Below are positions 1 to 25,721 of a DNA stretch of 64,000 nucleotides, piece by piece (positions within the stretch are counted from its first letter, which is position 1; each line of letters starts with the position of its first letter). The position numbers and the translations under genes were made by a program. This DNA is from a virus (taxonomy: Duplodnaviria; Caudoviricetes), in IMG/VR virus record IMGVR_UViG_3300025154_000056, positions 1-64,000 of that record. One strand, 5' to 3'. Below the pieces are notes generated by a model. It ran no database searches. It saw only the letters and a program-made list of their open reading frames with translations, and was not told where the DNA came from.

Positions 1-100
1 CGGCTACGGCGACGGCTACGGCTACGGCTACGGCTACGGCTACGGCTACGGCAACGGCGACGGCTACGGCTACGGCACAGTTACACTGAACCACAAATAG
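1..100 (+). CDS. 3' end of a Gly-Tyr/Gly-Asp repeat protein (partial)
   Basis: Frame from nt 2 reads GYGDGYGYGYGYGYGYGNGDGYGYGTVTLNHK* with TAG at 98-100; hexamer GGCTAC tandem repeat. Confidence 0.75.
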   Translation, partial: GYGDGYGYGYGYGYGYGNGDGYGYGTVTLNHK

Positions 101-111
101 GAGGCCGACAA

Positions 112-492
112 ATGGCAGGATACAACAAAGAACTGGACATTGAACACGCCGAATTCACCACCAAGGTAAGTGACAACATCACGGTAATTGCGGCGGTTCG
201 CCAATACTCAGGTGGCCCTATGAAGATCCAGTTTGGTCACATCCTGGGTACGTGGCGCAAGAACGGTTTGCCGAGATTGGAAGCGGCAGACCTCATGAAG
301 GTGGCCGATGACTGCATGGCAAAGGCATTGACTTTCGTCAACTCTCGCACGGAAGGCAAGCCCCAGTCCGTCGCCGAAACAAAGAAGGACATCGCGCCCA
401 CAGTGAATCGGAAGAAGGTCGCCAAGCCCACCAAGAAAATCACGCCGCAAGCACCGAAGAAGGGTGCACGGAAGACAGCAAGTGCCAACTGA
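112..492 (+). CDS. hypothetical early protein, possible PC4/YdbC-like N-terminal domain with Lys-rich tail
   Basis: GGAGG RBS; beta-rich N-terminus (VRQYSGGPMKIQF...LPRL) and basic low-complexity C-terminus; fold guess is weak. Confidence 0.55.
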   Translation: MAGYNKELDIEHAEFTTKVSDNITVIAAVRQYSGGPMKIQFGHILGTWRKNGLPRLEAADLMKVADDCMAKALTFVNSRTEGKPQSVAETKKDIAPTVNRKKVAKPTKKITPQAPKKGARKTASAN

Positions 493-733
493 CGTACCTA
501 CCCGACCGATTGCGGAGAAGGTAGCTGACATCCTTCGGGGTGCCGGTTATCTTCCCACGATCTGGGAAAAGGGAGGCTTCACCAGAGTCTACGTGGAACG
601 GCAGATGCCGAATTACCGTGACGCGTTAGGCTACATTACAATTAGCGTGAATGGCGCAATGTCATTCCGAGACATCTCTGAGTCGTATGCCGAGATTCGA
701 AACTTGGTCATCGACAAATACGCCCCTCCCTGA
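464..733 (+). CDS. hypothetical early protein
   Basis: ORF tiles between neighbours; IWEKGGFTRVYV motif typical of small phage proteins; start uncertain. Confidence 0.6.
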   Translation: MHGRQQVPTDVPTRPIAEKVADILRGAGYLPTIWEKGGFTRVYVERQMPNYRDALGYITISVNGAMSFRDISESYAEIRNLVIDKYAPP

Positions 734-796
734 TTGACACCGCATATATTAGACTTACCTTCATTGTGTCAACGCACAACAACGGAGGAACACACC
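734..796 (+). promoter_or_regulatory. early promoter/leader cassette 1
   Basis: TTGACA 734-739, 16 nt spacer, TACCTT; leader CACAACAACGGAGGAACACACC-ATG(797). Confidence 0.8.
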
Positions 797-1333
797 ATGA
801 GTTTGTTGAACGTAGAAGCAGCGTACAATTGGGACAACATCGTCAAGTTGGTCAAGGACGCCGACGTGTTCGAGTCTGAAGACGGCGATGTGGAGTACCA
901 ACGGATCTATCTCGGGAGCATCTTCACGGAGACGCCGAGCGGCAAAATGTACACCCCGTTTGCCAACAGCAACGTGGACGTGTGCCCGCAATGCAAGGGA
1001 GACGGGCATGTCAACAGGCTACGCCTACGCACCATGAAGAAGAGAGAAAGCCGATTCTTGAAGCACCGGGCTCTAGTGGTCAAGCGTGGTGGGTGGAGTA
1101 AGCTTTCCACTCGCCAACAGGCGTATATCAAGCGCACGTATCCCCTTCATTACAACACGCATCCAACATGCCCGCTTTGCCACGGTGTGGGTAGCCGAGA
1201 GGCGTACGAAGACGAGGTGTTCCACGAGCAGCTTGAAGAGGCTGCCGAGAAGCGTGGCTTGTTCGTCGAGTACGGAGACGGAGACATCTTCATCTGCCGT
1301 ACGGTTGATGAGACGGAAGAGGAGGTGCTGTGA
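797..1333 (+). CDS. hypothetical protein with two CxxCxGxG (DnaJ-type) zinc motifs
   Basis: CPQCKGDG and CPLCHGVG; ATG follows the leader cassette. Confidence 0.75.
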   Translation: MSLLNVEAAYNWDNIVKLVKDADVFESEDGDVEYQRIYLGSIFTETPSGKMYTPFANSNVDVCPQCKGDGHVNRLRLRTMKKRESRFLKHRALVVKRGGWSKLSTRQQAYIKRTYPLHYNTHPTCPLCHGVGSREAYEDEVFHEQLEEAAEKRGLFVEYGDGDIFICRTVDETEEEVL

Positions 1334-1839
1334 TGGATCAACGAGTCGCCAAAGAGTACCTGCGTCTTCGTGCTTTGGGCTTGGATGCTAGCGGGGCGTA
1401 TAGGGGTGCCAAGACCAACGTTGCCTTCGAAGAGGCTACCGTCATCGGTAAGGTTCGCCTACGTGTTGAGGTGGATGCTGACCCCAGTACAGCTTACTGG
1501 ACGAAGGAAGACTTCGAACTAGCCGATAAGGAAGGTACGTGGGGGATCATAACGGAATTCAGATGCCCGTTATGCGGCAACTGGGAGCACGCCTACTCAT
1601 GCTACGGATTCATCGGTGATAGTTGGGTAGACTCCATGTATGACGTAGACGCTCGCCGTGATGCGATAGATAAGCTGCTTGAATTCGAGCACAGAATCAT
1701 CCGAGAGCTATCCACGGAGCTAGCCCGCCGGGAGAACGCACTGGTACCTGATGACAGCTTGATCTACGGGCTGAAGGTGGCGATTCAGATCGCCAAGAGA
1801 TGCAGCACAGAGAAGCTACTTGACACTCCGTCAGAATAG
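1330..1839 (+). CDS. hypothetical early protein (CPLC zinc ribbon)
   Basis: GGAGG RBS, overlaps upstream stop. Confidence 0.7.
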   Translation: MMDQRVAKEYLRLRALGLDASGAYRGAKTNVAFEEATVIGKVRLRVEVDADPSTAYWTKEDFELADKEGTWGIITEFRCPLCGNWEHAYSCYGFIGDSWVDSMYDVDARRDAIDKLLEFEHRIIRELSTELARRENALVPDDSLIYGLKVAIQIAKRCSTEKLLDTPSE

Positions 1840-1875
1840 ACTTAGCTTCTATTCACACGAACGGAGGAACACACC
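1820..1875 (+). promoter_or_regulatory. early promoter/leader cassette 2
   Basis: TTGACA 1820-1825, 17 nt, TAGCTT; leader AACGGAGGAACACACC-ATG(1876). Confidence 0.8.
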
Positions 1876-2478
1876 ATGTATCAACACCGCATGCCGAAAA
1901 CCAGCAAATATCGCAAGCCCATCTACTTGCCCAACGCGACCAAGTTAGGGTACGCCAAGCACAGCGCCTCGGTCGGAGACGTGGTTTTCTTCGACGACTA
2001 CGCTGTCCCACAAGTAGGCCGGGTGTTTGGCTATGCCACCCAGACTGGGGGCGGCGCACCGGTCAAGCCGCGTACACAGCTAGTGTGCCTAGTGCTTGGT
2101 AGCAACATGTCCCTCTGTTATTGGCGCTTCGTTGGCGTCAACAAGGTGACGGAGTGTAGGTCGCCTGATGAGGACGGCGGTGCTTTCATCCGTTGGTTCT
2201 TCTCTGCTAAGATGACCAACGAGAAGCAGATCGCAGCTGCCGAACACTACGGCGCCTTGAGCGACAGAGCAATTGCCAAGTACCTGGACAAGCATGGTGA
2301 GTTGCGAGACGATTGGAAGCTGGTCGCCGACGTCAACCACCACAGGGTGATGGCGAAGAAGAACCATTGCCCGACATGTAATAGCCGAAACACATATTGC
2401 TACGACCCGAAGAACGGGTTTGCCGAGTGCCATGACTGCGGTAGATTCTACGATGACGAATACCGAGAGGAGAACTAG
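1876..2478 (+). CDS. hypothetical protein with C-terminal zinc ribbon
   Basis: CPTC...CHDC; follows leader cassette. Confidence 0.75.
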   Translation: MYQHRMPKTSKYRKPIYLPNATKLGYAKHSASVGDVVFFDDYAVPQVGRVFGYATQTGGGAPVKPRTQLVCLVLGSNMSLCYWRFVGVNKVTECRSPDEDGGAFIRWFFSAKMTNEKQIAAAEHYGALSDRAIAKYLDKHGELRDDWKLVADVNHHRVMAKKNHCPTCNSRNTYCYDPKNGFAECHDCGRFYDDEYREEN

Positions 2479-2479
2479 C

Positions 2480-2857
2480 ATGCCAAAGATACCAACCACA
2501 ACCAAGGAATTCGTCGGGTGGAAAATCACAGAGGAGACGCTTGCCAAGCACAATTTCCCGCTGCAACAACTGTACGCGTACTTGCGTCGGCCTAACAAGC
2601 CATTTAGAACCATCTATTGCTTGGCAGCAGCGTCCAGCAAAAACGGTGGCACCACATGGTTTAGGTTGTTCGTGGCAGAGGCCGACAACGACTTGGTCGA
2701 GGTCACCAAGGAATGCGCCAAGTTGTTCGGTATGGTTGAATTCAGCTACGGTCACTATGGGATTGCCGTAGGCGGGTGGGGCTCCCGTCGTTCCATGGTC
2801 ATTCAAGACAAGCTGCGCAATGCTTTGGGCGCCGACACTCCATTCGAAGACATGTGA
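2480..2857 (+). CDS. hypothetical early protein
   Basis: GAGGAG RBS before ATG 2480. Confidence 0.7.
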   Translation: MPKIPTTTKEFVGWKITEETLAKHNFPLQQLYAYLRRPNKPFRTIYCLAAASSKNGGTTWFRLFVAEADNDLVEVTKECAKLFGMVEFSYGHYGIAVGGWGSRRSMVIQDKLRNALGADTPFEDM

Positions 2858-2866
2858 AGTCTCCTC

Positions 2867-2925
2867 TTGACACTCTAGTCAATTAGACTTACCTTCATTC
2901 TACACAACGAATGGAGAACACACCG
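2867..2925 (+). promoter_or_regulatory. early promoter/leader cassette 3
   Basis: TTGACA 2867-2872, 17 nt, TACCTT; shares 18 nt ATTAGACTTACCTTCATT with cassette 1. Confidence 0.8.
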
Positions 2926-3255
2926 ATGCAAGACTTCCAATTCATTTCAGTTCACGTTGACCATGTTGGCCTGAAGATCATCGCGGCGGGACCGTGGGTC
3001 GGTCGGGATGGTAGCTGGGAGCGCCGAGTCGTGCTGCGCTTCTACGGCAACGAGTACGTCGTCCACACACAGAGCGCCGTAAACGGGTGTCACGATGGTT
3101 TTGATAGCGGGAACTACTTCTCGCTTCGCCACCATGACTCGCCGGAGAAGGCTGCGTTTGCTGCTCTGGACGCGTTCGCCGAGGCTGTGAAGAGCCTTGG
3201 AATCAGTCACATTGCTACGGTCACCAAGATCGCCAAGGAGCTGAACAATGGGTAG
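2926..3255 (+). CDS. hypothetical early protein
   Basis: GGAGAACACACCG-ATG leader. Confidence 0.7.
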   Translation: MQDFQFISVHVDHVGLKIIAAGPWVGRDGSWERRVVLRFYGNEYVVHTQSAVNGCHDGFDSGNYFSLRHHDSPEKAAFAALDAFAEAVKSLGISHIATVTKIAKELNNG

Positions 3256-3766
3256 CGTAACAGAGACGAGAATCTTTTATTACAACGCGGATCTGATCTG
3301 CGACAAGTGCGCCGAGCTAGTCAAGCAAGAGCTTCTGGAGGAGTACGGCGAGCAGTGGTGCGCCGAGGCTGAGGAGATAGGCGACAGCGAAGGTTGGCCT
3401 ATCGAGTTCTTCGGTGAGAATCTCACTGAATCACCTAACCATTGCGGTGGCCGTGAGACATGCCCGGAGCGTATTGAATGCTTGGACATATTCGACAGAC
3501 CATTCTACGTAGGCCAAGTGTTGCCTGGCGTACTTACGGCTGAGGGAGAAGCAGAATTGATTCGCCGTTACAAGAATGGCGTAATCAACGGTGAGGAATC
3601 GGACATCGAGTTAGGGCCATGCGAGGCGTGCAACACGCTTGCCGAACTGCAGGCTGATGCATACAACGTGAGCTTGCCGGAAGACTGTGTTGAGTGTGGC
3701 GGTTGTCACATGTATGGAGAGTGTCCTCTCGATGATGAGGACGCCGAAGAGAGCGAGGACGACTAA
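3248..3766 (+). CDS. acidic Cys-rich hypothetical protein
   Basis: AAGGAG RBS; CDKC, CEAC, CVEC motifs; acidic tail. Confidence 0.7.
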   Translation: MGSVTETRIFYYNADLICDKCAELVKQELLEEYGEQWCAEAEEIGDSEGWPIEFFGENLTESPNHCGGRETCPERIECLDIFDRPFYVGQVLPGVLTAEGEAELIRRYKNGVINGEESDIELGPCEACNTLAELQADAYNVSLPEDCVECGGCHMYGECPLDDEDAEESEDD

Positions 3767-4078
3767 ATGGCCAAGTACAATAAAGACGGCGAGCCTGTCT
3801 GGATTCGCTGCTACGACAACGATGGCAAGACTGCCGACAGGTACACGGTCGTGTTCACTCGCAAGCGTACTTGTGGGCAGTTTATGTTCCTCGGAATGAG
3901 TGAGTGGCCTACGCACCCACAAGGATTTGGACAGCACGACTACAGCGACGACCAGATCGATAGGCCAAAGTACGGCCACCTGGGTCGCAAAATCAAGTTC
4001 TCTGACTTGCCAAAAGAGTGCAGAGACTTGGTGATGCAGGACTACGCTTTGCTGTGGGGTAAACCGCCGAAGGACTAA
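3767..4078 (+). CDS. conserved phage hypothetical protein
   Basis: YDNDGKTADRYTVVF...HPQGFGQH...LGRKIKFSDLP pattern recognised from small phage proteins of unknown function. Confidence 0.75.
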   Translation: MAKYNKDGEPVWIRCYDNDGKTADRYTVVFTRKRTCGQFMFLGMSEWPTHPQGFGQHDYSDDQIDRPKYGHLGRKIKFSDLPKECRDLVMQDYALLWGKPPKD

Positions 4079-4081
4079 GCC

Positions 4082-4276
4082 ATGCGTTACCATCGAAGCC
4101 AGATCCAGATCGTGGCGGATAGGAAAGCAGAATTCAAGCTGCTTTCCATTCGCCTAAATGATGACTTGGGGGCATTGTATCAAGCGCAGCTACGGGTAAA
4201 ACAACTAGTTGCAATTGCCAAAGTCACGGCGCGGATGATTCGTTTCAGAGACACTGGCCGATTTCCAGGGTTCTAA
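4082..4276 (+). CDS. small hypothetical protein
   Basis: AAGGA RBS, tiles after upstream gene. Confidence 0.5.
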   Translation: MRYHRSQIQIVADRKAEFKLLSIRLNDDLGALYQAQLRVKQLVAIAKVTARMIRFRDTGRFPGF

Positions 4277-4314
4277 CAAGGGGGAGGGTAACATGCCGAA
4301 AGTTGATCTCAGTG

Positions 4315-4376
4315 TTGACAATAAAAACAGCGGTATTACATTCTAACACACAGCAACCAACACACCGGAGGATACA
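4315..4376 (+). promoter_or_regulatory. early promoter/leader cassette 4
   Basis: TTGACA 4315-4320, 16 nt, TACATT; CA-rich leader ending CACCGGAGGATACA-ATG(4377). Confidence 0.75.
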
Positions 4377-5090
4377 ATGCGTGCCAATGTGAAGAAGACG
4401 ATTCAAGCTTTCTGTAGGTCGGAACGCTACATCGGTGGGACTAACAAGGATGGCCGTCCCACCGTTTGGACCGACGGCGACACCATATTCAGTTACGCCA
4501 TGCCGATCGCAACCACCATCCGTGGTTGTGGTGCTGTGTTGCTGGTGAATTGGGATGATGCGCCGACGCAAACAACGAAGCAGCATTTGTCCGGTGTCAA
4601 TCAGGAGTTCCATAGGGCGCCGTCCGTGTGTCTCGATGACCTCAAGGACTACATGAACCATCAGGACGCCGAAGTGCGTCGCTGCATGCATTGTGAGTGC
4701 CGGTTCTTCGTGACTGGTCCTGACTCGGACACATGGCTCTGTGACCACTGCAACGTGCCGGGTGTCAGGGAGGCAAAGCGTGTTGGTGATGCAATCGACA
4801 TCAGGCACGCCGCATTGCCTCCGATTTGTGAACACTGTCGTCAGGATCTCAGCCCTAGCAGGGACTACAAGAAGGGCGTGCCGAAGTTCGAGATCCCAGG
4901 CACTGGTACGGTGTGCTACCATTGCAACAAGGCGCATGAAGAGCACGCCGATCCGGCGTACGGTCGGTCCTACTTCGCCATGCGTGTGCCGACGTTTGAC
5001 CTCGAAGGCGTTCGCGTCTTGGAGACCTTCGAGCCTGCCGAGGAAGAGGAGATGCTGGTGCTCTCGAAAGTCATTTCGGAATTCTCATGA
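4377..5090 (+). CDS. hypothetical protein with multiple CxxC motifs
   Basis: CMHC, CDHC, CEHC, CYHC. Confidence 0.75.
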   Translation: MRANVKKTIQAFCRSERYIGGTNKDGRPTVWTDGDTIFSYAMPIATTIRGCGAVLLVNWDDAPTQTTKQHLSGVNQEFHRAPSVCLDDLKDYMNHQDAEVRRCMHCECRFFVTGPDSDTWLCDHCNVPGVREAKRVGDAIDIRHAALPPICEHCRQDLSPSRDYKKGVPKFEIPGTGTVCYHCNKAHEEHADPAYGRSYFAMRVPTFDLEGVRVLETFEPAEEEEMLVLSKVISEFS

Positions 5091-5111
5091 GCCGGTTGTT
5101 TACTCTCTGAA

Positions 5112-5196
5112 TGTATCTCCGTTGTCTCTCCGTTGTGTTGTGTGCCGAGGCCAGGTGGCTGTGTAGGGGTGGTGCCCTGCATGGTCGCCTGGCCTC
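5112..5196 (+). other. structured intergenic element: antisense copy of early leader plus long hairpin
   Basis: 5112-5145 is the reverse complement of GCACACAACACAACGGAGAGACAACGGAGATACA; 5147-5196 forms a long stem (GAGGCCAGG/CCTGGCCTC plus inner pairing). Confidence 0.65.
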
Positions 5197-5212
5197 ACCT
5201 ATTTGTGAGGTG

Positions 5213-5279
5213 TTGACAATAGAAAAGGTGTGATTAGATTGACCTTACACAGCAGCACAACACACCACGGAGACGGCCA
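5213..5279 (+). promoter_or_regulatory. early promoter/leader cassette 5
   Basis: TTGACA 5213-5218, 16 nt, TAGATT; leader CACAACACACCACGGAGAC. Confidence 0.75.
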
Positions 5280-5696
5280 ATGAAAACCACCAAATACTTT
5301 GAGCGACGCACGTTTGACTTTGAGAAGGAGAAGTTTCAGGACGCCGGTAAGTACCAGTCTTGGAATGCGTGTCGGCGTTACGACATGTCCCGCACCACGA
5401 CCTTTGAGATCATCGGCCTGTATCACCTGAGCGTGGATGATTACGGGGAATCGAGCACACAGCGCGTGTTCTTCCTAGCTGCCGATTTGGCGTGGCTTGC
5501 TAAGGTCACAAATAGAGGCGCCGAAATGCGGAACAGTGACTTGGATCCAGCCCTTGAAGTTGCCGAACGAATCACAGGCTGGTATGCATTTGATAGTGGG
5601 CCGGGACAAGCGTTCTCTCGTGGTCCGTGGGCGCGCTATGTTGGCAAATCGAAGAAATGGGTTTGCGTCAGCCAATACGGAGGTCTCGATGTCTGA
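5280..5696 (+). CDS. hypothetical early protein
   Basis: follows leader cassette. Confidence 0.7.
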   Translation: MKTTKYFERRTFDFEKEKFQDAGKYQSWNACRRYDMSRTTTFEIIGLYHLSVDDYGESSTQRVFFLAADLAWLAKVTNRGAEMRNSDLDPALEVAERITGWYAFDSGPGQAFSRGPWARYVGKSKKWVCVSQYGGLDV

Positions 5697-6090
5697 CACT
5701 AGGAAGCATCTATTCGACACAGGGGACGCCGACTCTCTGACCTACGGTGGCGGTCGCGTGTTCGACAATGACGGCACCATTCAATGGGAGTTTTGGGACG
5801 AACCTACGGACGCCGACGGCTCGGAAATTGAGCCAGAAAACGCTACCTATACCGTGTATCGAGTTGACGTGCCGGATGATGTTTGCTGCTACCACGACTG
5901 GGCAAACTGGAGTGCCGTGTCTGCGTTCTCGGGATCGGACGTGTGGTTACTTGGTAGGTCCACAGACATGCGAGACCGTGTGAATTGCCTAGAATCTCTG
6001 ATCCTGTATTACAGCCCGGAGAATCTTGACCAGTACCCAATACAGCTTGCCTACAGTGAGATGCTGGAGCGATACCCAAGCCTTGTTTGA
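5689..6090 (+). CDS. acidic hypothetical early protein
   Basis: GGAGG RBS before ATG 5689, overlaps upstream stop. Confidence 0.7.
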   Translation: MSDTRKHLFDTGDADSLTYGGGRVFDNDGTIQWEFWDEPTDADGSEIEPENATYTVYRVDVPDDVCCYHDWANWSAVSAFSGSDVWLLGRSTDMRDRVNCLESLILYYSPENLDQYPIQLAYSEMLERYPSLV

Positions 6091-6154
6091 CATCGCCGAC
6101 TAGACAAGGCATGGTGCTTTGTCTAGGCCGCAAACACAACGAAGGAGAAAAGAA
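6087..6154 (+). promoter_or_regulatory. early promoter/leader cassette 6 (degenerate -10 within an inverted repeat)
   Basis: TTGACA 6087-6092, 17 nt, CATGGT flanked by TAGACAAGGC/GCTTTGTCTA; leader CACAACGAAGGAG. Confidence 0.55.
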
Positions 6155-6478
6155 ATGCCGAAGTCTGATTTCATCACGGTTCGTGGGCATGACACCTGCG
6201 GATACGCCGTCGACCAACAGATGCTGGACAGCAAGCTGATCGATCTGAAGTTCTATCGGCCGACTGGTAGTCGACGCATCGAGTTCAGTGCCGACACGGA
6301 CAGCAAGAGCGAGGAGGGAACCTTGTACCTGTCATGGCCCGCCGGACACGATACCGAAGCCGAGGTGATGGAGCGCGCGGGGGTGATGCTAGTGGCGCTC
6401 GCCAAGCACATGTGCGGCACCGAAGACCTCTGCATCGGTGGCCGTTCGGCAGAAGAGAACAAGACCGAAGCAGCTTGA
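6155..6478 (+). CDS. hypothetical early protein
   Basis: AAGGAG RBS. Confidence 0.7.
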   Translation: MPKSDFITVRGHDTCGYAVDQQMLDSKLIDLKFYRPTGSRRIEFSADTDSKSEEGTLYLSWPAGHDTEAEVMERAGVMLVALAKHMCGTEDLCIGGRSAEENKTEAA

Positions 6479-6521
6479 TCCCCGCACGGCCCCGCACCTA
6501 CGCGGTAGGCCAACCCTCCCC

Positions 6522-6582
6522 TTGACACAATTAGACTAGTGTTTACTGTATTGTTGCAGCACAACAACACGGAGAACACACC
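6522..6582 (+). promoter_or_regulatory. early promoter/leader cassette 7
   Basis: TTGACA 6522-6527, 16 nt, TACTGT; leader CACAACAACACGGAGAACACACC-ATG(6583). Confidence 0.8.
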
Positions 6583-6849
6583 ATGCACCCTGAACTCGCC
6601 AAGTCACTCATCCGACACCATTTGCGCATAGCCATCAGTTGTATTGCCGGGGAGGGACCGTTAGATGCCACCAAGAATATCGGCATTGCAATTGGCCTGA
6701 TGGCGAACGTTGCTGGTTCGAATAGGATCTACGGTCGCAGAATTGAGACTCTGAACAAGCTCACCTACGAGCAGTATAGGGCGATTCTCAAGGATGCGCG
6801 CAGATGGGACAAGGCTAGGAATGCCATCGAGCGCATCCAACAAAGCTAG
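6583..6849 (+). CDS. hypothetical early protein
   Basis: follows leader cassette. Confidence 0.7.
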   Translation: MHPELAKSLIRHHLRIAISCIAGEGPLDATKNIGIAIGLMANVAGSNRIYGRRIETLNKLTYEQYRAILKDARRWDKARNAIERIQQS

Positions 6850-6855
6850 CCGAAA

Positions 6856-6900
6856 GCTACGGTAGCACAATTGGTCAGTGCCCCCGGCTCATAACCGGGC
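6856..6900 (+). pseudogene. 5' half of a CAT-anticodon tRNA (Met/Ile2-like), truncated
   Basis: TA-GCAC-AATTGGTCA-GTGC D arm; CCCGG-CT-CAT-AA-CCGGG anticodon arm; no proper T arm or 3' acceptor strand follows. Confidence 0.6.
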
Positions 6901-6915
6901 GATTACTTCGCCACG

Positions 6916-7275
6916 ATGGCCGAAGCAACGGTTCAGTACCTCGATGATGATCCGAGATTTAGCAACGAACAGCGCACCAGCATCAAGTCGCCGTTTGTGA
7001 TGCTGGAAGGACCAGCACAGCCCAGCCCAGACAACCCGGACGGCTTCGTCTGCATGGTTCGTCGTATAGACAAAAGAACATGCTGTGCTTATTGTGGGGA
7101 TCGCCTTACCAATGGGGACCTTACGGTGTGTAGCAGGCATGCAACAGAGCCAGACCCGTGCCGAACTCGTGATGATGACTGGCGTAGGGAGCAAGCCATG
7201 CAGGCAGGCATGGCAGGGGGCTGCCAAGCGTACAACGAGGTCATGGGATATGACGAAGGAGGAGAACAACAATGA
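6916..7275 (+). CDS. hypothetical protein (CAYC motif)
   Basis: ORF tiles to next gene; start uncertain. Confidence 0.55.
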   Translation: MAEATVQYLDDDPRFSNEQRTSIKSPFVMLEGPAQPSPDNPDGFVCMVRRIDKRTCCAYCGDRLTNGDLTVCSRHATEPDPCRTRDDDWRREQAMQAGMAGGCQAYNEVMGYDEGGEQQ

Positions 7276-7529
7276 GCGCCTATGATTACGACGAAGACGA
7301 AGACGACTACGAAGACGAAGAAGATGCCGATGAGGACTACGAAGAAGATGGAAGTGATTTCAGGGACGATGATTTTTACGATCCTGGTGGCCGTTCAGCG
7401 TTGCGTGCCGGTGATCGGAAGCATCCTTGCCCGACGTGCAAGGAGCCCAATCGGCTAACGGCCGCCGATATCAGACACGGCTATCAGTGTGATGAATGCG
7501 CCGATCGCGCTGAGGGGTACGGATACTGA
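7272..7529 (+). CDS. small protein with acidic N-terminus and zinc ribbon
   Basis: 23 of first 37 residues are D/E; CPTC...CDEC; strong GGAGGAG RBS. Confidence 0.75.
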   Translation: MSAYDYDEDEDDYEDEEDADEDYEEDGSDFRDDDFYDPGGRSALRAGDRKHPCPTCKEPNRLTAADIRHGYQCDECADRAEGYGY

Positions 7530-7568
7530 AGCTTTGCCTATAACACACTCGCCGTGGTATGATTGATT

Positions 7569-7598
7569 GGTCGGGTAGCAATAGCTCCCGGCCTTTTT
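7569..7598 (+). terminator. intrinsic terminator, overlapping a TTGCCT-N18-TATGAT promoter (7534-7563)
   Basis: GGTCGGG...CCCGGCC stem followed by TTTTT. Confidence 0.65.
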
Positions 7599-7623
7599 CA
7601 CGTCTGCCAAACGGAGCGAAACC

Positions 7624-8889
7624 ATGAAGTTTCGACTGAGCAAGCCGAGCAAAATAGACAAGTCCAAAGCGGCCAACGAAAGCAAAGAACAACCTAGTAT
7701 TGTTCATGGCTCCACTGGCCTAATAAGCCCCGAGCGGCTCACCCAAGGGGCATCCAAGGGTGCCGTCAGACTCCCTAAGGGCGCACCTACCAAGAAGGAA
7801 AACAAGGCAGCCGGGGCAACTCTAAAGGGGAAGGAAAAGAGCATCCAAGCAGAGAGCACAACAGGTAAAGCAAAGAAGCTAGCCGGGGCACAGAAGGGGC
7901 AAACAATCAAAGGGAAGGCAACTCACAAGGGAGAGGACAAGACTACCAAGAACAACACGCCTATCGATGCTTCCAATACTACTAGAGCACGAGACAGTGT
8001 TGTTGCAGGAGAGGCTGCCAAATCACGTCGCCGACCATCGAAAAGTGGCAACACAACCAAAGAGGAGAAGACCAAAGAGGCGTGTGCCAGTGATACTAGT
8101 AACATCCCCGGTGTGTCTTCGAAGCAGTCAGTCAGTGTTGTAAAGAAGGTCGCCAAATCGACTCACCAGCCATCGAAGAATCAACCAGTCAGTGTGGCCG
8201 ACTCGTCGGTGAAAACAGCTCGCCAGCCAGCCGACCTGCCAATATCAGCCGACTCGCCGGAAGCCGATGCGCCGGGGGGTGCCGACTACCCCTACGAGAA
8301 TGCCGAGCCTGCCGACATCGTTCACATACCTGGTGGCCTACCTATGGTGGGTCTCAGCATCACCGTTTCTGAGTCTGAGAAGCTTTCCCTCCTCGCCAAC
8401 ACGCCGTTGCATGATCCAGAGCATGAAAGGCGGCAACTAGCGTTGATCCCGCGTTTACAGTGTTCTACGTGCAACATGGCCGGTGAATGCCCAGAGTATC
8501 AAGAGGAGTATGTTTGCGCGTTTGAACCTGCTTTCAATGCGTTTCCTGTGCGTGATGTGTTCGCCGTTGAAGAGGCAATGCGCGAAATCGCTCAGAAGAA
8601 TATGGCTCGATTTAGACGTGCCAGCTTCTCTGAAGATGTGGTCGGAGGAGGTCTTTTGGACCTTTCCGTGACTCGCCAAAGTCAGGTGGCTATGGCACAG
8701 CTAACACAGCTTAGAGAGTTGCAGAGATCAACACGCCAAGTAGGTGTACAGTTCGTTGGCTCGCCAGATTCTGTTGGAAGCCAAGGAAAAGGCATTTTGT
8801 CTAAGCTTTTCGGTGGTTTACAGGATTCGCCTGACACTATTGAAAGCGAGATAATAGACTCAATTCCTAGTCCCGATACGGATGAATAG
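7624..8889 (+). CDS. protein with long Lys/Ser-rich disordered N-terminus and Cys4/helical C-terminal domain (possible terminase small subunit)
   Basis: CSTCxxxxxCPxYxxxxxC followed by helical region ending GILSKLFGG; function inferred only. Confidence 0.6.
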   Translation: MKFRLSKPSKIDKSKAANESKEQPSIVHGSTGLISPERLTQGASKGAVRLPKGAPTKKENKAAGATLKGKEKSIQAESTTGKAKKLAGAQKGQTIKGKATHKGEDKTTKNNTPIDASNTTRARDSVVAGEAAKSRRRPSKSGNTTKEEKTKEACASDTSNIPGVSSKQSVSVVKKVAKSTHQPSKNQPVSVADSSVKTARQPADLPISADSPEADAPGGADYPYENAEPADIVHIPGGLPMVGLSITVSESEKLSLLANTPLHDPEHERRQLALIPRLQCSTCNMAGECPEYQEEYVCAFEPAFNAFPVRDVFAVEEAMREIAQKNMARFRRASFSEDVVGGGLLDLSVTRQSQVAMAQLTQLRELQRSTRQVGVQFVGSPDSVGSQGKGILSKLFGGLQDSPDTIESEIIDSIPSPDTDE

Positions 8890-9015
8890 CCGTCAAAAGT
8901 ACCCGTTGGCTCAACACGGCATTTCCGGACACTAACTCTATAAAACAAGGGGTCTGCGAATCACCCATATACGGATGATTTGCCTGCTTTCTCTGTTGTG
9001 CTTTGCAGCTACATC

Positions 9016-9077
9016 TTGACACATTAGAAGAACATGATTATGTTTGGTTCTCACGACACAACACACGGAGAACGAAG
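9016..9077 (+). promoter_or_regulatory. early promoter/leader cassette 8
   Basis: TTGACA 9016-9021, 17 nt, TATGTT; leader CACAACACACGGAGAAC. Confidence 0.75.
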
Positions 9078-9422
9078 ATGAGAACGCGGCAAGATGTGGT
9101 TGATGCAATGGTGGCCTGGAACGCGAAACACTATGAGTCTCTTGGTAGGGACTACACCACGCGCTACCCGCCGTCCGTCCCTGAATTGTACGATTGCTTG
9201 AACGTGCCCCACATTGGCAAAACAGTCGCCAAGGATGCGGATGGGATGTGGTACTGCGAGAACATTGGTGCCACGGTTCGCTTGTACGCCAGCAAGAGCC
9301 CGAACAATCCGAACAAGCTCCATCGCCTGTTCATTACTTGCCCTGCTTGCTTGCGGGATGTGGATGCCGGACACTTCCAACAACACAAGTGCAGTTTGCC
9401 AAAAACAACGAAAGAACAATGA
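9078..9422 (+). CDS. hypothetical zinc-finger protein
   Basis: CPAC...HFQQHKC. Confidence 0.7.
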   Translation: MRTRQDVVDAMVAWNAKHYESLGRDYTTRYPPSVPELYDCLNVPHIGKTVAKDADGMWYCENIGATVRLYASKSPNNPNKLHRLFITCPACLRDVDAGHFQQHKCSLPKTTKEQ

Positions 9423-9583
9423 CCATGAGTAATACGATCAAGCATGCCGACTACACAGAGAACCTTGGAAACGATCTTCCCACGATCAAGCGTGGGAGGC
9501 GCGTGAAAGAATCTCGCAAGCGTGACAGGGTTGCCAAGCTCAAGGAGCAACTCTCGTTCCTCACAACCCCCGCTTGGCGCTAG
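9419..9583 (+). CDS. small basic hypothetical protein
   Basis: ATGA overlap with upstream stop. Confidence 0.5.
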   Translation: MTMSNTIKHADYTENLGNDLPTIKRGRRVKESRKRDRVAKLKEQLSFLTTPAWR

Positions 9584-9589
9584 TTTCCT

Positions 9590-10500
9590 TCCCTTTGGCG
9601 CGTTCTGCGTCGCACAATCTCCCTTTCGTTTCACGAATCACACGCCGTATCGTTTCACCAGCCGATTGCGTTTGCGTTTCACCGGCCGTACGCCGTTGCG
9701 TATCGGGGGCCGGGTGCCGTTCGCGATGGCCTGCGAGCCGTGCGCCGGATCTCCTGCTCGGTGGCCTGCCCGCCGCGTGTCGGCCTGGGGACGGTGGCCG
9801 GTGTGGGCCTGCCCGATGGCCTGGTCCAGCTGCCTGCGGCATGGTGGCCGTGGCTCTGGCGCTGTGCGCCGGTAGGCGTGGCGCTAGGAGAATCATGCAC
9901 AATCGTGTGAATTTGACCTGGATTGTAGGCGATTGAAACGGATTGTATGGGTACAATGCGTCGAAAATTCGACTGACTATGCGTGACAATATGTCGAATA
10001 AGAGCATGACTATATGTGACAATGCGTCTGAAGTTCAACGCATTGGGTCAATTGAAACGGATTGAATCGCGCTATCCCAGCAAAGCAAAGCTCGTGCCAC
10101 CCATATCCGAACCTTTTTGCACGATGTGTAAAACGACTAGAGGTATATGCGCAATCGGTGCATAGCTCTAGAAATCGTTTTGGTGCCGCCCTAGGTCAAA
10201 GGGTAGCTTGGTAGGGTCCGACGCGTTTATGACATCTTCTATTCGTCGCAATGCGGTTGACGTGAATTGTCACTACGGCTGATTTTGGTGACGAAAATTG
10301 TCACCCACGAAAACACCTATAAAACAAGGTCAATTCGTGTTTTTGACCTTCCAGCGATGATTTATTCCAGAATTGAGGTGACGCTAATTGTCACTCGATG
10401 GGCGTAAAGCAACAATTAGACCAAAGATAATGCAGCACGCAAACCCTATAAAACAAGGTCTATTGCAACATTCGACACGGCATTATCTAGGTTGGTATTG
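9590..10500. repeat. non-coding region rich in short direct and inverted repeats
   Basis: CGTTTCAC x3 at 24-nt period, GGCCTG x5, ATTGAAACGGATTG x2, (G/T)TGACGnnAATTGTCAC x3, CTATAAAACAAGG x2. Confidence 0.75.
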
Positions 10501-10550
10501 CTTGTGCATTGTATGCGTGCGAACGAGCCACCCACACCGGAGACAAGAAA

Positions 10551-11219
10551 ATGACTATCACAATCCTCACTCACCTCTCAGCTCTTCTCGCGGTTCTCAG
10601 CGTGATCGTGTTCGCAATCGGCGAAGCCATGGGGCGCACGGACACGCGCAGCGAGAACACGGAACGCGTGTCCGTGACTCGTCGCGTTCCTTCTCCTCGC
10701 GAGTCTTACCTTCTCTCCCTCATGTTCTCCGCTGCTAAGACTCGCGATGCAATCGAGAATGCAGCTACAGAGCAAGCAACCATGCGCAACGCGGAAACGG
10801 TTGTTTTGAACCGCGCGGCAAAGCTGTCCAGTGCTCGGTTCTGCTTCGCTAGTCCTCGCATCGCGACCCCGGCGCAACGCGAAGTCAACGTGTGGGCGGA
10901 ACGCGACGCGATGCGCTCTGACGCAATCGAGCAAGGCTTGTCCAAGGTTGCAGCTACCATTGAAGCGAAACTTTCGGATCTGGACGCTGCGCGCAAGGCA
11001 TCGGACGCGATGGTCCAGTCTGCTAGGGCATATGCGGCCCTTGCTACTCGCGCCCCGATTGTCACGGCGGAATGGTCCGATGCTCTTACCGTCCTACCAG
11101 TGACGTCCAAGGCTAGCGGCTTTGCAGCGATGCAATGTGGCAACGTTGCCATGACACGTCGCGAGGTCGGACTTGACGCGAACGGACGGCGCGTTTACCA
11201 ATATCAGCTTGTCTATTGA
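10551..11219 (+). CDS. Ala-rich protein with N-terminal transmembrane helix
   Basis: leader CCCACACCGGAGAC; hydrophobic ILTHLSALLAVLSVIVFAI. Confidence 0.65.
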   Translation: MTITILTHLSALLAVLSVIVFAIGEAMGRTDTRSENTERVSVTRRVPSPRESYLLSLMFSAAKTRDAIENAATEQATMRNAETVVLNRAAKLSSARFCFASPRIATPAQREVNVWAERDAMRSDAIEQGLSKVAATIEAKLSDLDAARKASDAMVQSARAYAALATRAPIVTAEWSDALTVLPVTSKASGFAAMQCGNVAMTRREVGLDANGRRVYQYQLVY

Positions 11220-11270
11220 CACGGCGCAGTGGAGTGATTAGCTTAGCTCTTACCAACAACGAACCGGAGA
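11216..11270 (+). promoter_or_regulatory. early promoter/leader cassette 9
   Basis: TTGACA 11216-11221, 17 nt, TAGCTT; leader CCAACAACGAACCGGAGA. Confidence 0.75.
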
Positions 11271-11870
11271 ATGACCATGACCACCTCGAAAAAAGCTACC
11301 GCGACTGAAACTACGATCCCTACCTGCTACGTCTGCGCCACGGTTAGGAAACATGCGACGATGAATCCGAAAGGGCGATGCTTGGTTGGACCTTGCATCC
11401 CGCTTCCAGAAACGGAAGGCTCCTACTTCGCGGTCGATTCCGGTCTTGTGATCGATGGGGTCCCCTCCCCCCTCGTGTTCCCCTCCCTTGACGTCGCAGT
11501 CCAGAGCTTAATCAAATGGGACGGGGTGGCACTAGGGCTGGACGGCGCAGTCCTGGGTGGCTCCCTCCCAGAAGGTAAGGCGCCCAAGGGCAAGGCTACA
11601 CCCAAGGGCAAGGCGTCCACGCAACCCGCCCCTGACGTCAACCCTAGCAAGGGGTTTGACGCAACCCCCGTCCCGCAACCCGTGACCAGTGCAACCCCTG
11701 CTACCGCTACCGTCCAGGGGAAGGCTACCCGCAAGGGAGCGGTCAAGCGTGCGAGCAAGGCTACCCCCAAGGTGGACGCACCCAAGGGCGATGCACCCAA
11801 GATCAAGCTGACACCTGCGCAGCGTGAGGCGGCGGAAAAGCGAATGAACGCGCTCATTTCCCAGGCATGA
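11271..11870 (+). CDS. hypothetical protein with PKGKA low-complexity basic tail
   Basis: CYVC motif; repeats KAPKG/KATPKG. Confidence 0.7.
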   Translation: MTMTTSKKATATETTIPTCYVCATVRKHATMNPKGRCLVGPCIPLPETEGSYFAVDSGLVIDGVPSPLVFPSLDVAVQSLIKWDGVALGLDGAVLGGSLPEGKAPKGKATPKGKASTQPAPDVNPSKGFDATPVPQPVTSATPATATVQGKATRKGAVKRASKATPKVDAPKGDAPKIKLTPAQREAAEKRMNALISQA

Positions 11871-12000
11871 GCACATAATCAAGCGTTCATAATGCGTCGC
11901 ATCATATGATCATGGTGCGGCGCGTCATCGCGTTCAGCGTTCAATTCCAGATTATGAATAAGTATGGAGTACCCCCACCCAGGGGGTTAATTGGAAAGTC

Positions 12001-12160
12001 TGTATATGTGAGGCGGTGATCCCAGATTTTATTTGCCGAAAGATACGGGTCGCAGTAGCTGAGTACATAAATCTCTTTATCTATTATGTATGTGGTGCTA
12101 GTGATCCCAGATTTTATTTGCCAAGAAACACGCGTCTCACTAGCTGAGTACATAAACCTC
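12001..12160. repeat. imperfect direct repeat, 85-nt period
   Basis: GTGATCCCAGATTTTATTTGCC...TAGCTGAGTACATAAA at 12016 and 12101. Confidence 0.85.
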
Positions 12161-12293
12161 GAGGTCTATTCTTCGGGGAGTGCCGAGTAGTTGTATACAA
12201 GCAGGATGAATTCGTACAGCGTGGTGTTGCGTGGTGCTGGCGACGTGGCTATGCTGTCAGGAATTGACCGAAACACACGAAGGGAGAAGCGGC

Positions 12294-12740
12294 ATGACAA
12301 TCGAATACAAAAGCAACAAACCCACCACTGAGTTCTACGTGCAGGCATTCAAGATGGGGGAAGAGTTCGACGCACCAGAAGGCTACGCAGCGTGGCTGAC
12401 AAGTGTGCACAGAGTAGGGGAAACTGGGCTATGTCTCGTGGTCGTGTGGCGTAGAAAACCCGTCGACATGGATTACTCCCAAGTCGAGCGTAGTATAATG
12501 GCCTACCTCGCATCATCCCGTAAAGAAGCTCACAAAGAAGACACCCACACGAAGCTGGCTGCAAAGATCTTCAACGTAGCAGAGGCAGAAGTGACGTCAG
12601 AGCAGCGCCGCCAAGCAAAGATAATCGAACTTGGTGTGACCTATGGGATGGGCGAGGTCGCGCTGTCCAGACACCTCGGCATCACCTACGCACAGGCCCG
12701 TCAGCTCATTGACGCATATGTTTATGGACAGGAGGCGTGA
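12294..12740 (+). CDS. small protein carrying an isolated family-A DNA polymerase fingers (motif B) segment
   Basis: DTHTKLAAKIFNV...VTSEQRRQAKIIELGVTYGMGEVALSRHLGITYAQARQLIDAY matches the PolA O-helix region. Confidence 0.75.
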   Translation: MTIEYKSNKPTTEFYVQAFKMGEEFDAPEGYAAWLTSVHRVGETGLCLVVVWRRKPVDMDYSQVERSIMAYLASSRKEAHKEDTHTKLAAKIFNVAEAEVTSEQRRQAKIIELGVTYGMGEVALSRHLGITYAQARQLIDAYVYGQEA

Positions 12741-13156
12741 TGCTCAGAATTCCAATCCGCAGACCGTTGTCACTCCTTGGACTACTAGACGACATCCAAA
12801 AGACCGAGAAGTATTCGGTACTGCACTGTGAGTACCTGGAAGGCTCAAGAATAGTAGATAAGATGATCGACGTGATAGAGTCGGTGGAGCTTGAGACCGG
12901 TTCCAAGCCAGAGATGATTCTGCTGGGCAAGAGAATCATGCAGGAGCTACTTGGCTGTGCGGACAAGTATTGCTCTGAGAGATCCTACGCCAAGCTGGTA
13001 GAGCCAGGGTACGTGGAGTTCTTTGGGGTGCGCTGCTACCTTCATCCGTTTCTGGAGCCGTACGAGATACAACCCGTGCTGCCGTTTGACGTGGCAGTTT
13101 GGGCGGCGTTTGGGGAGGATGACGTACTGACGAGACTGAAAGAGAGGCTGAAGTAA
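12737..13156 (+). CDS. hypothetical protein
   Basis: GGAGG RBS, overlap with upstream stop. Confidence 0.65.
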   Translation: MMLRIPIRRPLSLLGLLDDIQKTEKYSVLHCEYLEGSRIVDKMIDVIESVELETGSKPEMILLGKRIMQELLGCADKYCSERSYAKLVEPGYVEFFGVRCYLHPFLEPYEIQPVLPFDVAVWAAFGEDDVLTRLKERLK

Positions 13157-25686: not shown

Positions 25687-25721
25687 CGAGCCCCTCTACT
25701 GAAACATGTAGAGGGGTTTCG
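25687..25721 (+). terminator. stem-loop between peptide gene and QueC-like gene
   Basis: CCCCTCTAC/GTAGAGGGG perfect 9-bp stem followed by TTTC. Confidence 0.6.

Follow-up and report, generated by a model that had tools for sequence, protein, structure and literature searches.

Genes 4377 and 5280, which lie in the early region of an uncultured phage, are separated by a gap that contains a GU-rich tract, a long perfect hairpin and the promoter of the downstream gene (Table 1). The locus was analysed within a window comprising the first 64 kb of the source contig, a linear IMG/VR phage contig of 104,340 bp that was obtained from groundwater and is approximately 82% complete. All genes of the contig are located on the + strand. 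The tract, referred to as the anti-leader, consists on the + strand of 1 A, 8 C, 9 G and 16 T and features a tandem repeat at 5116-5137, TCTCCGTTGTC/TCTCCGTTGTG, which corresponds to TCTCCGTTGT(C/G). Its sequence and coordinates are exactly those given in an earlier note on this DNA. The spacer that precedes the tract would hold the pairing arm, which begins at 5121, clear of the footprint of a ribosome terminating at the end of gene 4377. A single unpaired C separates the anti-leader from the hairpin.

Table 1 Features of the region between promoter P4315 and the end of gene 5280. Positions refer to the 64-kb window.
Feature	Position	Strand	Details
Promoter P4315	4315-4342	+	-35 TTGACA, 16-nt spacer, -10 TACATT; consensus match only
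CA-rich leader of gene 4377	4349-4376	+	SD GGAGG at 4367-4371; alternative pairing with the anti-leader in an mRNA ending after the hairpin
Gene 4377	4377-5090	+	237-aa protein; stop codon 5088-5090
Spacer between gene 4377 stop codon and anti-leader	5091-5111	+	21 nt
Anti-leader tract	5112-5145	+	Tandem UCUCCGUUGU x2 (5116-5126 and 5127-5137), both containing an anti-SD CUCC; GU run
5' arm of predicted outer helix	5121-5145	+	25 bp (23 Watson-Crick and 2 G.U) with 5252-5281
Perfect hairpin	5147-5196	+	22 bp, 6-nt loop, -44.2 kcal/mol (folding)
Promoter P5213	5213-5240	+	-35 TTGACA, 16-nt spacer, -10 TAGATT; 10/12 consensus match; expected TSS ~5247
3' arm of predicted outer helix	5252-5281	+	Gene 5280 leader; SD GGAG at 5269-5272; first two AUG bases at 5280-5281
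Gene 5280	5280-5696	+	138-aa ORFan protein; proposed regulated gene; ATG at 5280, SD at 5269-5272

The 237-aa protein is composed of an N-terminal portion of ~80 residues, which belongs to a family of functionally uncharacterised phage proteins of ~100 aa, and a C-terminal part that features four CxxC pairs and has no relatives. Searches of Pfam, PHROGs and the ESM Atlas yielded nothing usable on the function of either flanking protein. P4315 and P5213 are near-identical paralogues of a single class, and both carry GTGTTGACAAT.

At least 11 sigma70-type early cassettes featuring a CA-rich/GGAG leader are present on the contig. Nine sigma70-type cassettes map within the first 12 kb (734, 1820, 2867, 4315, 5213, 6087, 6522, 9016 and 11216) and share the same layout, in which TTGACA, a 16-17-nt spacer and TAnnnT are followed by a C/A-rich leader with GGAG and by ATG. 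Two further cassettes consisting of a promoter and a CA-rich leader are found outside the window, at the far end of the contig (103472-103530 and 103960-104014). The early region therefore spans the contig ends, which reflects either circular permutation or a missing piece. The TTGACA of 6087 may not belong to a promoter, because a 12-bp hairpin (6100-6126) occupies the position expected for its -10; the leader at 6155 may be reached solely via read-through.

Early leaders are 67% A+C and contain one to six ACA triplets each, with a mean of 3.8 vs 0.9 over all gene starts. ACA motifs located upstream of the Shine-Dalgarno (SD) sequence are known translation enhancers (PMC3879156), and this role alone is sufficient to account for the resemblance among leaders. 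The antisense RNA to which leader conservation had previously been attributed is not needed as an explanation.

The anti-leader is the reverse complement of the leader common to the early cassettes. When reversed and complemented, it aligns over 12-24 nt with the leader core, i.e., a CA run and GGAGA, in all in-window cassettes (9/9), and the best alignments are those with 9016, 5213, 6522 and 4315. The match to the leader consensus described in the earlier note is borne out, and the tract carries its leader-complementary unit twice in tandem. The similarity is confined to the leader core and reaches neither promoter nor coding sequence.

The hypothesis that the tract marks a minus-strand gene or the remnant of an inverted cassette was rejected, as there is no promoter, neither GGAG is followed by a start and the similarity ends with the leader core. 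Neither TTGACA nor a promoter-like site is present on the minus strand near the tract, in agreement with the earlier note. Similarly, neither minus-strand GGAG is followed by the start of an ORF at a distance of 4-12 nt, even if ATT, ATC, ATA and CTG are allowed as start codons, so that the view that no credible minus-strand gene exists here is upheld. A 40-aa ORF on the + strand (5111-5233) was discarded as well, since it has no SD and traverses both the hairpin and the promoter. A search of positions 1-13000 against Rfam (cmscan, E<=1) returned a chance ALIL match at 9109-9228 as the sole hit, and neither C4 nor any other family was detected.

The hairpin at 5147-5196 exceeds all other perfect hairpins of the 104-kb contig in both length and stability. 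It contains five G.U pairs and no mismatch, and the minus-strand RNA of the same DNA folds at only -25.1 kcal/mol. The presence of G.U pairs in the absence of mismatches, together with the difference in stability between the two strands, suggests selection on the + strand RNA, and points to a structure maintained as + strand RNA rather than as a DNA palindrome or as part of a minus-strand transcript. No U tract follows the hairpin, as the tail reads ACCUAUUUGUG and contains no U run within 0-2 nt. The terminator scan makes no call at 5147-5196, which does not qualify as an intrinsic (Rho-independent) terminator. The canonical terminators of this phage, such as the hairpins at 25688 and 68818, carry canonical U tracts.

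The complementarity between the tract and the early leaders was evaluated genome-wide by a duplexfold scan, in which every 40-nt + strand segment of the 104,340-bp contig (~20,800 segments) was compared with the nine leaders. The tract ranks first, with a mean of -29.1 kcal/mol vs a genome value of -12.2 +/- 3.0, and the next locus scores -25.4. The best values obtained in 13 dinucleotide-preserving shuffles of the whole genome range from -23.9 to -27.3, and none of them (0/13) reaches -29.1. The match exceeds chance, at a rough genome-wide p of ~0.01. When the seed (5095-5146) was shuffled and the hairpin was kept, the mean cofold gain was -18.1 +/- 2.0, as compared with -24.9 for the real sequence (z -3.5; 0/100 shuffles reach the real value), and hence about two thirds of the pairing energy is attributable to GU-versus-CA composition.

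Duplex energy alone is no proof of function, because the 5280 leader has chance partners of equal or greater strength in coding sequence, at 4511-4545 (-38.5 kcal/mol, which exceeds the value of the anti-leader itself) and at ~58321 (-43). The former lies in a + strand stretch of gene 4377 (4511-4550) made of GU-rich codons for TIRGCGAVLLV, within the conserved N-terminal domain, and pairs with the 5280 leader. The minus strand of the same stretch is leader-like and is located behind TTGACAC at 4600, with no fitting -10 or start codon. This complementarity is probably due to chance and illustrates how readily an anti-leader can be mimicked by coding sequence that is rich in GU.

When 5108-5146 was compared with 144 crudely called gene starts from the whole contig, the strongest duplex was that with the adjacent ribosome binding site (RBS) of gene 5280 (-32.3 kcal/mol); the 9078 RBS ranks fourth, and that of the tract's own gene, 4377, ranks fifth. 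Of the nine leaders, that of 5213 is also the preferred partner of the right-hand repeat unit taken by itself. Folding of the 5088-5300 region (z -4.7) revealed that a helix formed by the anti-leader and the 5280 leader extends the hairpin. The outer helix bulges on the leader side only and contributes 22.2 kcal/mol in the read-through RNA. It encloses ~105 nt, with both the separate 22-bp hairpin and an entire sigma70 promoter, as P5213 sits wholly between the two predicted arms. According to partition function calculations, the 5280 SD is unpaired with a probability of 0.53 in RNA 5247-5340, the expected P5213 transcript, a value that drops to 0.002-0.003 in read-through RNAs starting at 5088, 4900 or 4349. 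Shuffling of the upstream 150 nt gave a median probability of 0.26, and none of 40 shuffles was as low as the real value of 0.0004. The evidence for the complementarity, for the fold, for where the promoter lies and for the missing U tract is all in silico.

The adjacent gene is the best partner of the tract and its promoter lies between the two arms, and both features favour action in cis. The pairing with the 5280 leader, which had been mentioned only in passing in the earlier note, is consequently the alternative that we prefer, and 5280 is the best of the 144 predicted partners. The locus most likely represents a case of promoter-dependent RBS occlusion by fold-back, a known mechanism displayed here with an unusual anatomy. 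We tentatively propose that the tract is a cis-acting anti-Shine-Dalgarno element, which would fold back onto the 5280 RBS and occlude it in RNA reading through from P4315. RNA polymerase starting at P4315 would transcribe gene 4377, the anti-leader and the 22-bp hairpin, and would move on into the 5280 cassette, continuing past the hairpin because of the missing U tract. Judging from the sequence, such read-through is plausible. In the resulting RNA, 5121-5145 would pair with 5252-5281, and both the SD and the AUG of gene 5280 would be buried in a 25-bp helix stacked on the hairpin, leaving the gene untranslated. RNA started at P5213 would lack the anti-leader and display an open ACA-rich leader, and gene 5280 would be translated solely from its own promoter. 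What we infer from these predictions is the read-through, the transcription start site, the consequence for translation and whatever advantage the phage may gain.

Some features do not fit easily with fold-back in cis. P4315 and P5213 belong to the same class, and the temporal rationale of the phage T4 cases described below is therefore missing. The effect is robust at one cassette of eleven only, and just a weak trend is seen at 734, 1820 and 2867. Moreover, the 5280 leader is matched as well or better by the chance coding partners at 4511-4545 and ~58321, and the 22-bp hairpin might act as a terminator or as a cleavage site in the host, in which case no read-through RNA would be left. At 5197-5213, a small inverted repeat, CACCT-N7-AGGTG, directly adjoins the -35 of P5213 and extends into it, whereas P4315 has no such repeat. 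As a putative operator, it could subject P5213 to separate control, which would provide the cis gating of gene 5280 with the rationale that it lacks.

Among the remaining eight in-window cassettes, no leader has a best upstream partner that stands out, and a comparable element is found only before 5213. Pyrimidine runs containing CUCC are present at 726-732 (CCCTCCC), 2861-2866 (CTCCTC) and 6513-6521 (CCCTCCCC), where they abut the -35 of 734, 2867 and 6522, respectively, and CTCCGT is found at 1826-1831, in the spacer of cassette 1820. The SDs of 734, 1820 and 2867 are predicted to be 12-56 times less accessible in read-through RNA than in RNA from their own promoters. Comparison with shuffled upstream sequence revealed a trend only (7, 3 and 2 of 40 shuffles, respectively). 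Cis gating as a general rule of the cassettes is not supported, since the other ten cassettes combined by Fisher's method gave p ~0.1 (calculated by hand from the numbers of shuffles). Another extended stretch without coding sequence (126 nt, 8890-9015) precedes promoter 9016 and contains TTCTCTGTTGTG, a weaker relative of the anti-leader unit in which CUCU replaces CUCC. TTCTCTGTTGTG pairs only weakly, and without significance, with the 9078 leader (-15.2).

Promoter-dependent occlusion of the RBS has been described for the e, soc, 49, I-TevI and segB genes of phage T4, and for mobE of phage Aeh1 (PMC3014915, PMC2988022). For the first four of these T4 genes, the RBS is buried in long early transcripts, while transcripts that start at internal promoters and lack the 5' half of the structure are translated (PMC3014915; PMC2988022). 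Similarly, the SD and the AUG of gene 5280 are predicted to be sequestered in a helix, the 5' half of which precedes the gene's own promoter. In silico, the long RNA has the SD and the first two bases of the start codon paired, and the own promoter is found downstream of the 5' arm. The two systems differ in several respects. The T4 structures are compact local hairpins, whereas the helix described here has 25 bp and is built around a 22-bp hairpin and a promoter (~105 nt). The T4 promoters belong to different temporal classes (early/middle vs late); P4315, in contrast, is near-identical to P5213, and a difference in timing or origin between the promoters, which is typical of the class, is not observed. 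Finally, the 5' arm is a copy of the leader common to a whole early gene set.

For the mobile element IS10/Tn10, in which the fold-back logic is likewise established, Davis, Simons and Kleckner (1985, Cell 43:379, as cited in PMC13181058) reportedly described fold-back inhibition of transposase translation on transcripts originating from outside promoters. As in IS10, the 5280 RBS would pair with sequence found only in read-through RNA, and the gene would be insulated from fortuitous upstream transcription. IS10, however, is a mobile element, and is not known to have a hairpin between the arms or a shared leader family. The c4 antisense RNA of phages P1 and P7 (Rfam C4) is processed from the transcript of its target and blocks a downstream RBS; it is a folded 77-nt RNA with antisense segments exposed in loops. 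Like c4, the anti-leader is an antisense element co-transcribed upstream of the RBS that it would occlude, and action may occur either in cis or in trans. In contrast to c4, the tract is linear, is located beside a hairpin and matches Rfam neither in sequence nor in structure.

The pairing may also be incidental. According to this hypothesis, which we regard as somewhat unlikely, the tract would be a functionless by-product, i.e., an inverted partial duplication of a leader or GU-rich DNA generated by slippage, and the adjoining hairpin would have a job of its own as a 3'-end stabiliser, a terminator or an RNase III site. The limitation of the similarity to a low-complexity leader core of 17-24 nt is in line with such an origin, as are the large share of composition in the pairing energy (~two thirds), the finding that GU-rich coding stretches pair with leaders almost equally well, the tandem 11-nt repeat, which resembles a recent duplication, and the lack, among the sequences searched, of relatives that could show purifying selection. 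Yet the tract is a genome-wide extreme reached by none of the 13 shuffles, and occupies one of the few long stretches without coding sequence in an early region that is tightly packed. In addition, no hairpin of the genome is stronger than the one that it directly adjoins, and among its targets the adjacent gene ranks first. It is highly improbable that the locus acts as a DNA site, with the direct repeats and the inverse motif in the leaders serving as operators for a phage repressor of early promoters. The two identical 10-mers are one helical turn (11 bp) apart, and the inverse 9-mer recurs in the leaders, but the leader motif varies both in sequence and in position relative to the promoter, and the exact 9-mer is also found at ordinary RBSs (17221 and 32982). 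Moreover, the adjoining hairpin is a strand-specific RNA, and no candidate binding protein was identified.

Other hypotheses assign to the tract a role as RNA on other messages or on its own. The earlier note had proposed that RNA transcribed from P4315 shuts off a whole regulon in trans. The complementarity carried on this RNA is real and is the strongest in the genome, and no canonical terminator is interposed; the regulon-wide shut-off, in contrast, finds no specific support and is unlikely. In such a scheme, a hairpin-protected 3' fragment of the 4377 mRNA (~5091-5200) would outlive the early mRNAs, and its GU/CUCC seed would pair with the ACA-rich GGAG leaders of many of them and shut down their translation. 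Cofold complementarity to the nine leaders ranges from -20 to -35 kcal/mol and beats 92-100% of shuffled seeds for 7/9 leaders. In the isolated 3' fragment (5091-5210), the seed is predicted to be ~60% unpaired, and it lies immediately 5' of a very stable hairpin. A precedent is the GcvB sRNA, the G/U-rich seed of which silences C/A-rich (ACA) translation enhancers in many mRNAs (PMC3879156). Both RNAs display a G/U-rich single strand directed against the ACA-rich leaders of a whole gene set, and the seed described here is accessible and complementary to several targets beyond composition. However, GcvB is free-standing and Hfq-dependent, with its own promoter and a U-tailed terminator, whereas the tract is preceded by no promoter-like site and followed by neither a U-tailed terminator nor an Hfq-type 3' end. 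Being carried by one of at least 11 early mRNAs, it would be sub-stoichiometric to its targets at the outset, and it would face intramolecular competitors, either the 5280 leader or its own leader. Its target preference is for the neighbour and not for the consensus, and it has no match in Rfam. A free-standing sRNA candidate with an anti-leader was read from the sequence outside the window, at 68684-68856 of the contig, between a TTGACA/TACACT promoter and a canonical terminator. As a second anti-leader-like RNA with signals of its own, it would be in favour of action in trans, but its duplex energy, averaged over the nine early leaders (-23.0), is within the range of whole-genome shuffles, and it therefore lends little independent support to a function of 5112-5145. 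Its tail, CGCTATTTGAG, resembles that found after the 5147-5196 hairpin, CACCTATTTGTGAG. The anti-leader might also close its own mRNA by pairing with the 5' leader and SD of gene 4377, a decidedly improbable scenario in which translation of 4377 would be limited to the time before the 3' end is made and an RNase III substrate may be created. In RNA 4349-5210, 4353-4370 is predicted to pair with 5128-5145 over ~18 bp (pair probabilities of 0.95-1.0), and the unpaired probability of the 4377 SD falls from 0.25 to 0.004 (15 kcal/mol), which requires the RNA to end after the hairpin. At its left end, the tract is a mirror of the GGAG(G)AUACA spacer unique to the 4377 leader, the RBS of which is the fifth-ranked partner among the 144. 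A similar arrangement is known in the icaR mRNA of Staphylococcus aureus, in which an anti-SD motif in the 3'-UTR pairs with the SD of the same mRNA (PMC3868564). In both cases a pyrimidine-rich 3'-UTR anti-SD is complementary to the mRNA's own 5' leader, initiation is predicted to be blocked and the duplex is a possible RNase III substrate; in silico, the motif in the 3'-UTR of gene 4377 pairs with the gene's own SD only if the RNA ends after the hairpin. In contrast to the cellular icaR gene, the phage 3'-UTR prefers the leader of the downstream gene whenever this is present. Closure would require pairing across ~750 nt of translated RNA and presupposes a putative 3' end after the hairpin, and in read-through RNA the 5280 leader wins fully, leaving 0 bp to the own leader.

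Occlusion of the 5280 RBS in cis, action in trans and closure of the 4377 mRNA are not mutually exclusive. They might be combined in a three-way RNA switch derived from the shared leader, although we consider this very unlikely. Gene 5280 would be silenced in cis in read-through RNA, the 4377 message would be closed once the RNA is cut or ends at the hairpin, and the early ACA/GGAG leaders would then be titrated in trans by the 3' fragment and by the 68.7-kb RNA. By analogy, and with the same low probability, such a switch would be an RNA counterpart of the shut-off exerted by RegB. This T4 endoribonuclease shuts off early mRNAs via the shared GGAG Shine-Dalgarno sequence (PMC3014915). RegB is a functional analogue of a leader-based early shut-off, but it is a protein nuclease and not an RNA, and no homology is involved.

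To our knowledge, the cases of RBS protection by fold-back described so far are those of late genes of T4, of homing endonucleases and of IS elements. If gene 5280 is indeed controlled by fold-back in cis, this type of protection would also operate between same-class early cassettes of an unrelated, uncultured phage, and the dose of gene 5280 would have to track its own promoter only. If the tract instead acts in trans, the phage would use an RNA copied from its leader to silence the early gene set, a strategy of which we know no experimental description. With a length of ~300 nt, the locus is a compact test case that is easily synthesised and suited to a compensatory-mutation design without the phage host.

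Megablast and tblastn searches against phage records identified no relatives. Scans of viral and metagenome contigs with peptide patterns of both flanking proteins were also negative, neither the tract nor the hairpin was recovered in exact-pattern scans, and word-index searches with the flanking proteins retrieved only the proteins themselves. Both proteins are accordingly classed as ORFans. A full HMMER scan detected distant homologues of ~100 aa, restricted to the N-terminal domain of the 237-aa protein. In three viral loci encoding such homologues, the next gene follows directly, and no comparable element is found. Scanning viral contigs with the leader pattern gave 37 single matches, which is about the number expected by chance, and no relative among them. 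In relatives of the portal protein (35-39% identity), promoters and leaders are different, and no convincing anti-leader is found upstream. The sequencing runs comprise DNA contigs, one set of which probably derives from the source sample. DNA contigs from a second sample cover parts of both flanking genes only, with no differences, and the tract falls outside their coverage.

The promoter-plus-leader pattern matched, in metagenomes, one unrelated high-GC bacterial contig, Ga0075021_10053338 (L054 767-812), in which TAGACTTAGGTTC, 22 nt and ACGGAGGAACATATG are followed by a gene encoding a secreted protein. The match may be due to chance or be a clue to the promoter and RBS style of the host. 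Elsewhere in the window, a 915-aa ORF (27636-30383) features Hint and LAGLIDADG homing-endonuclease domains, and represents an intein, apparently located within the large terminase.
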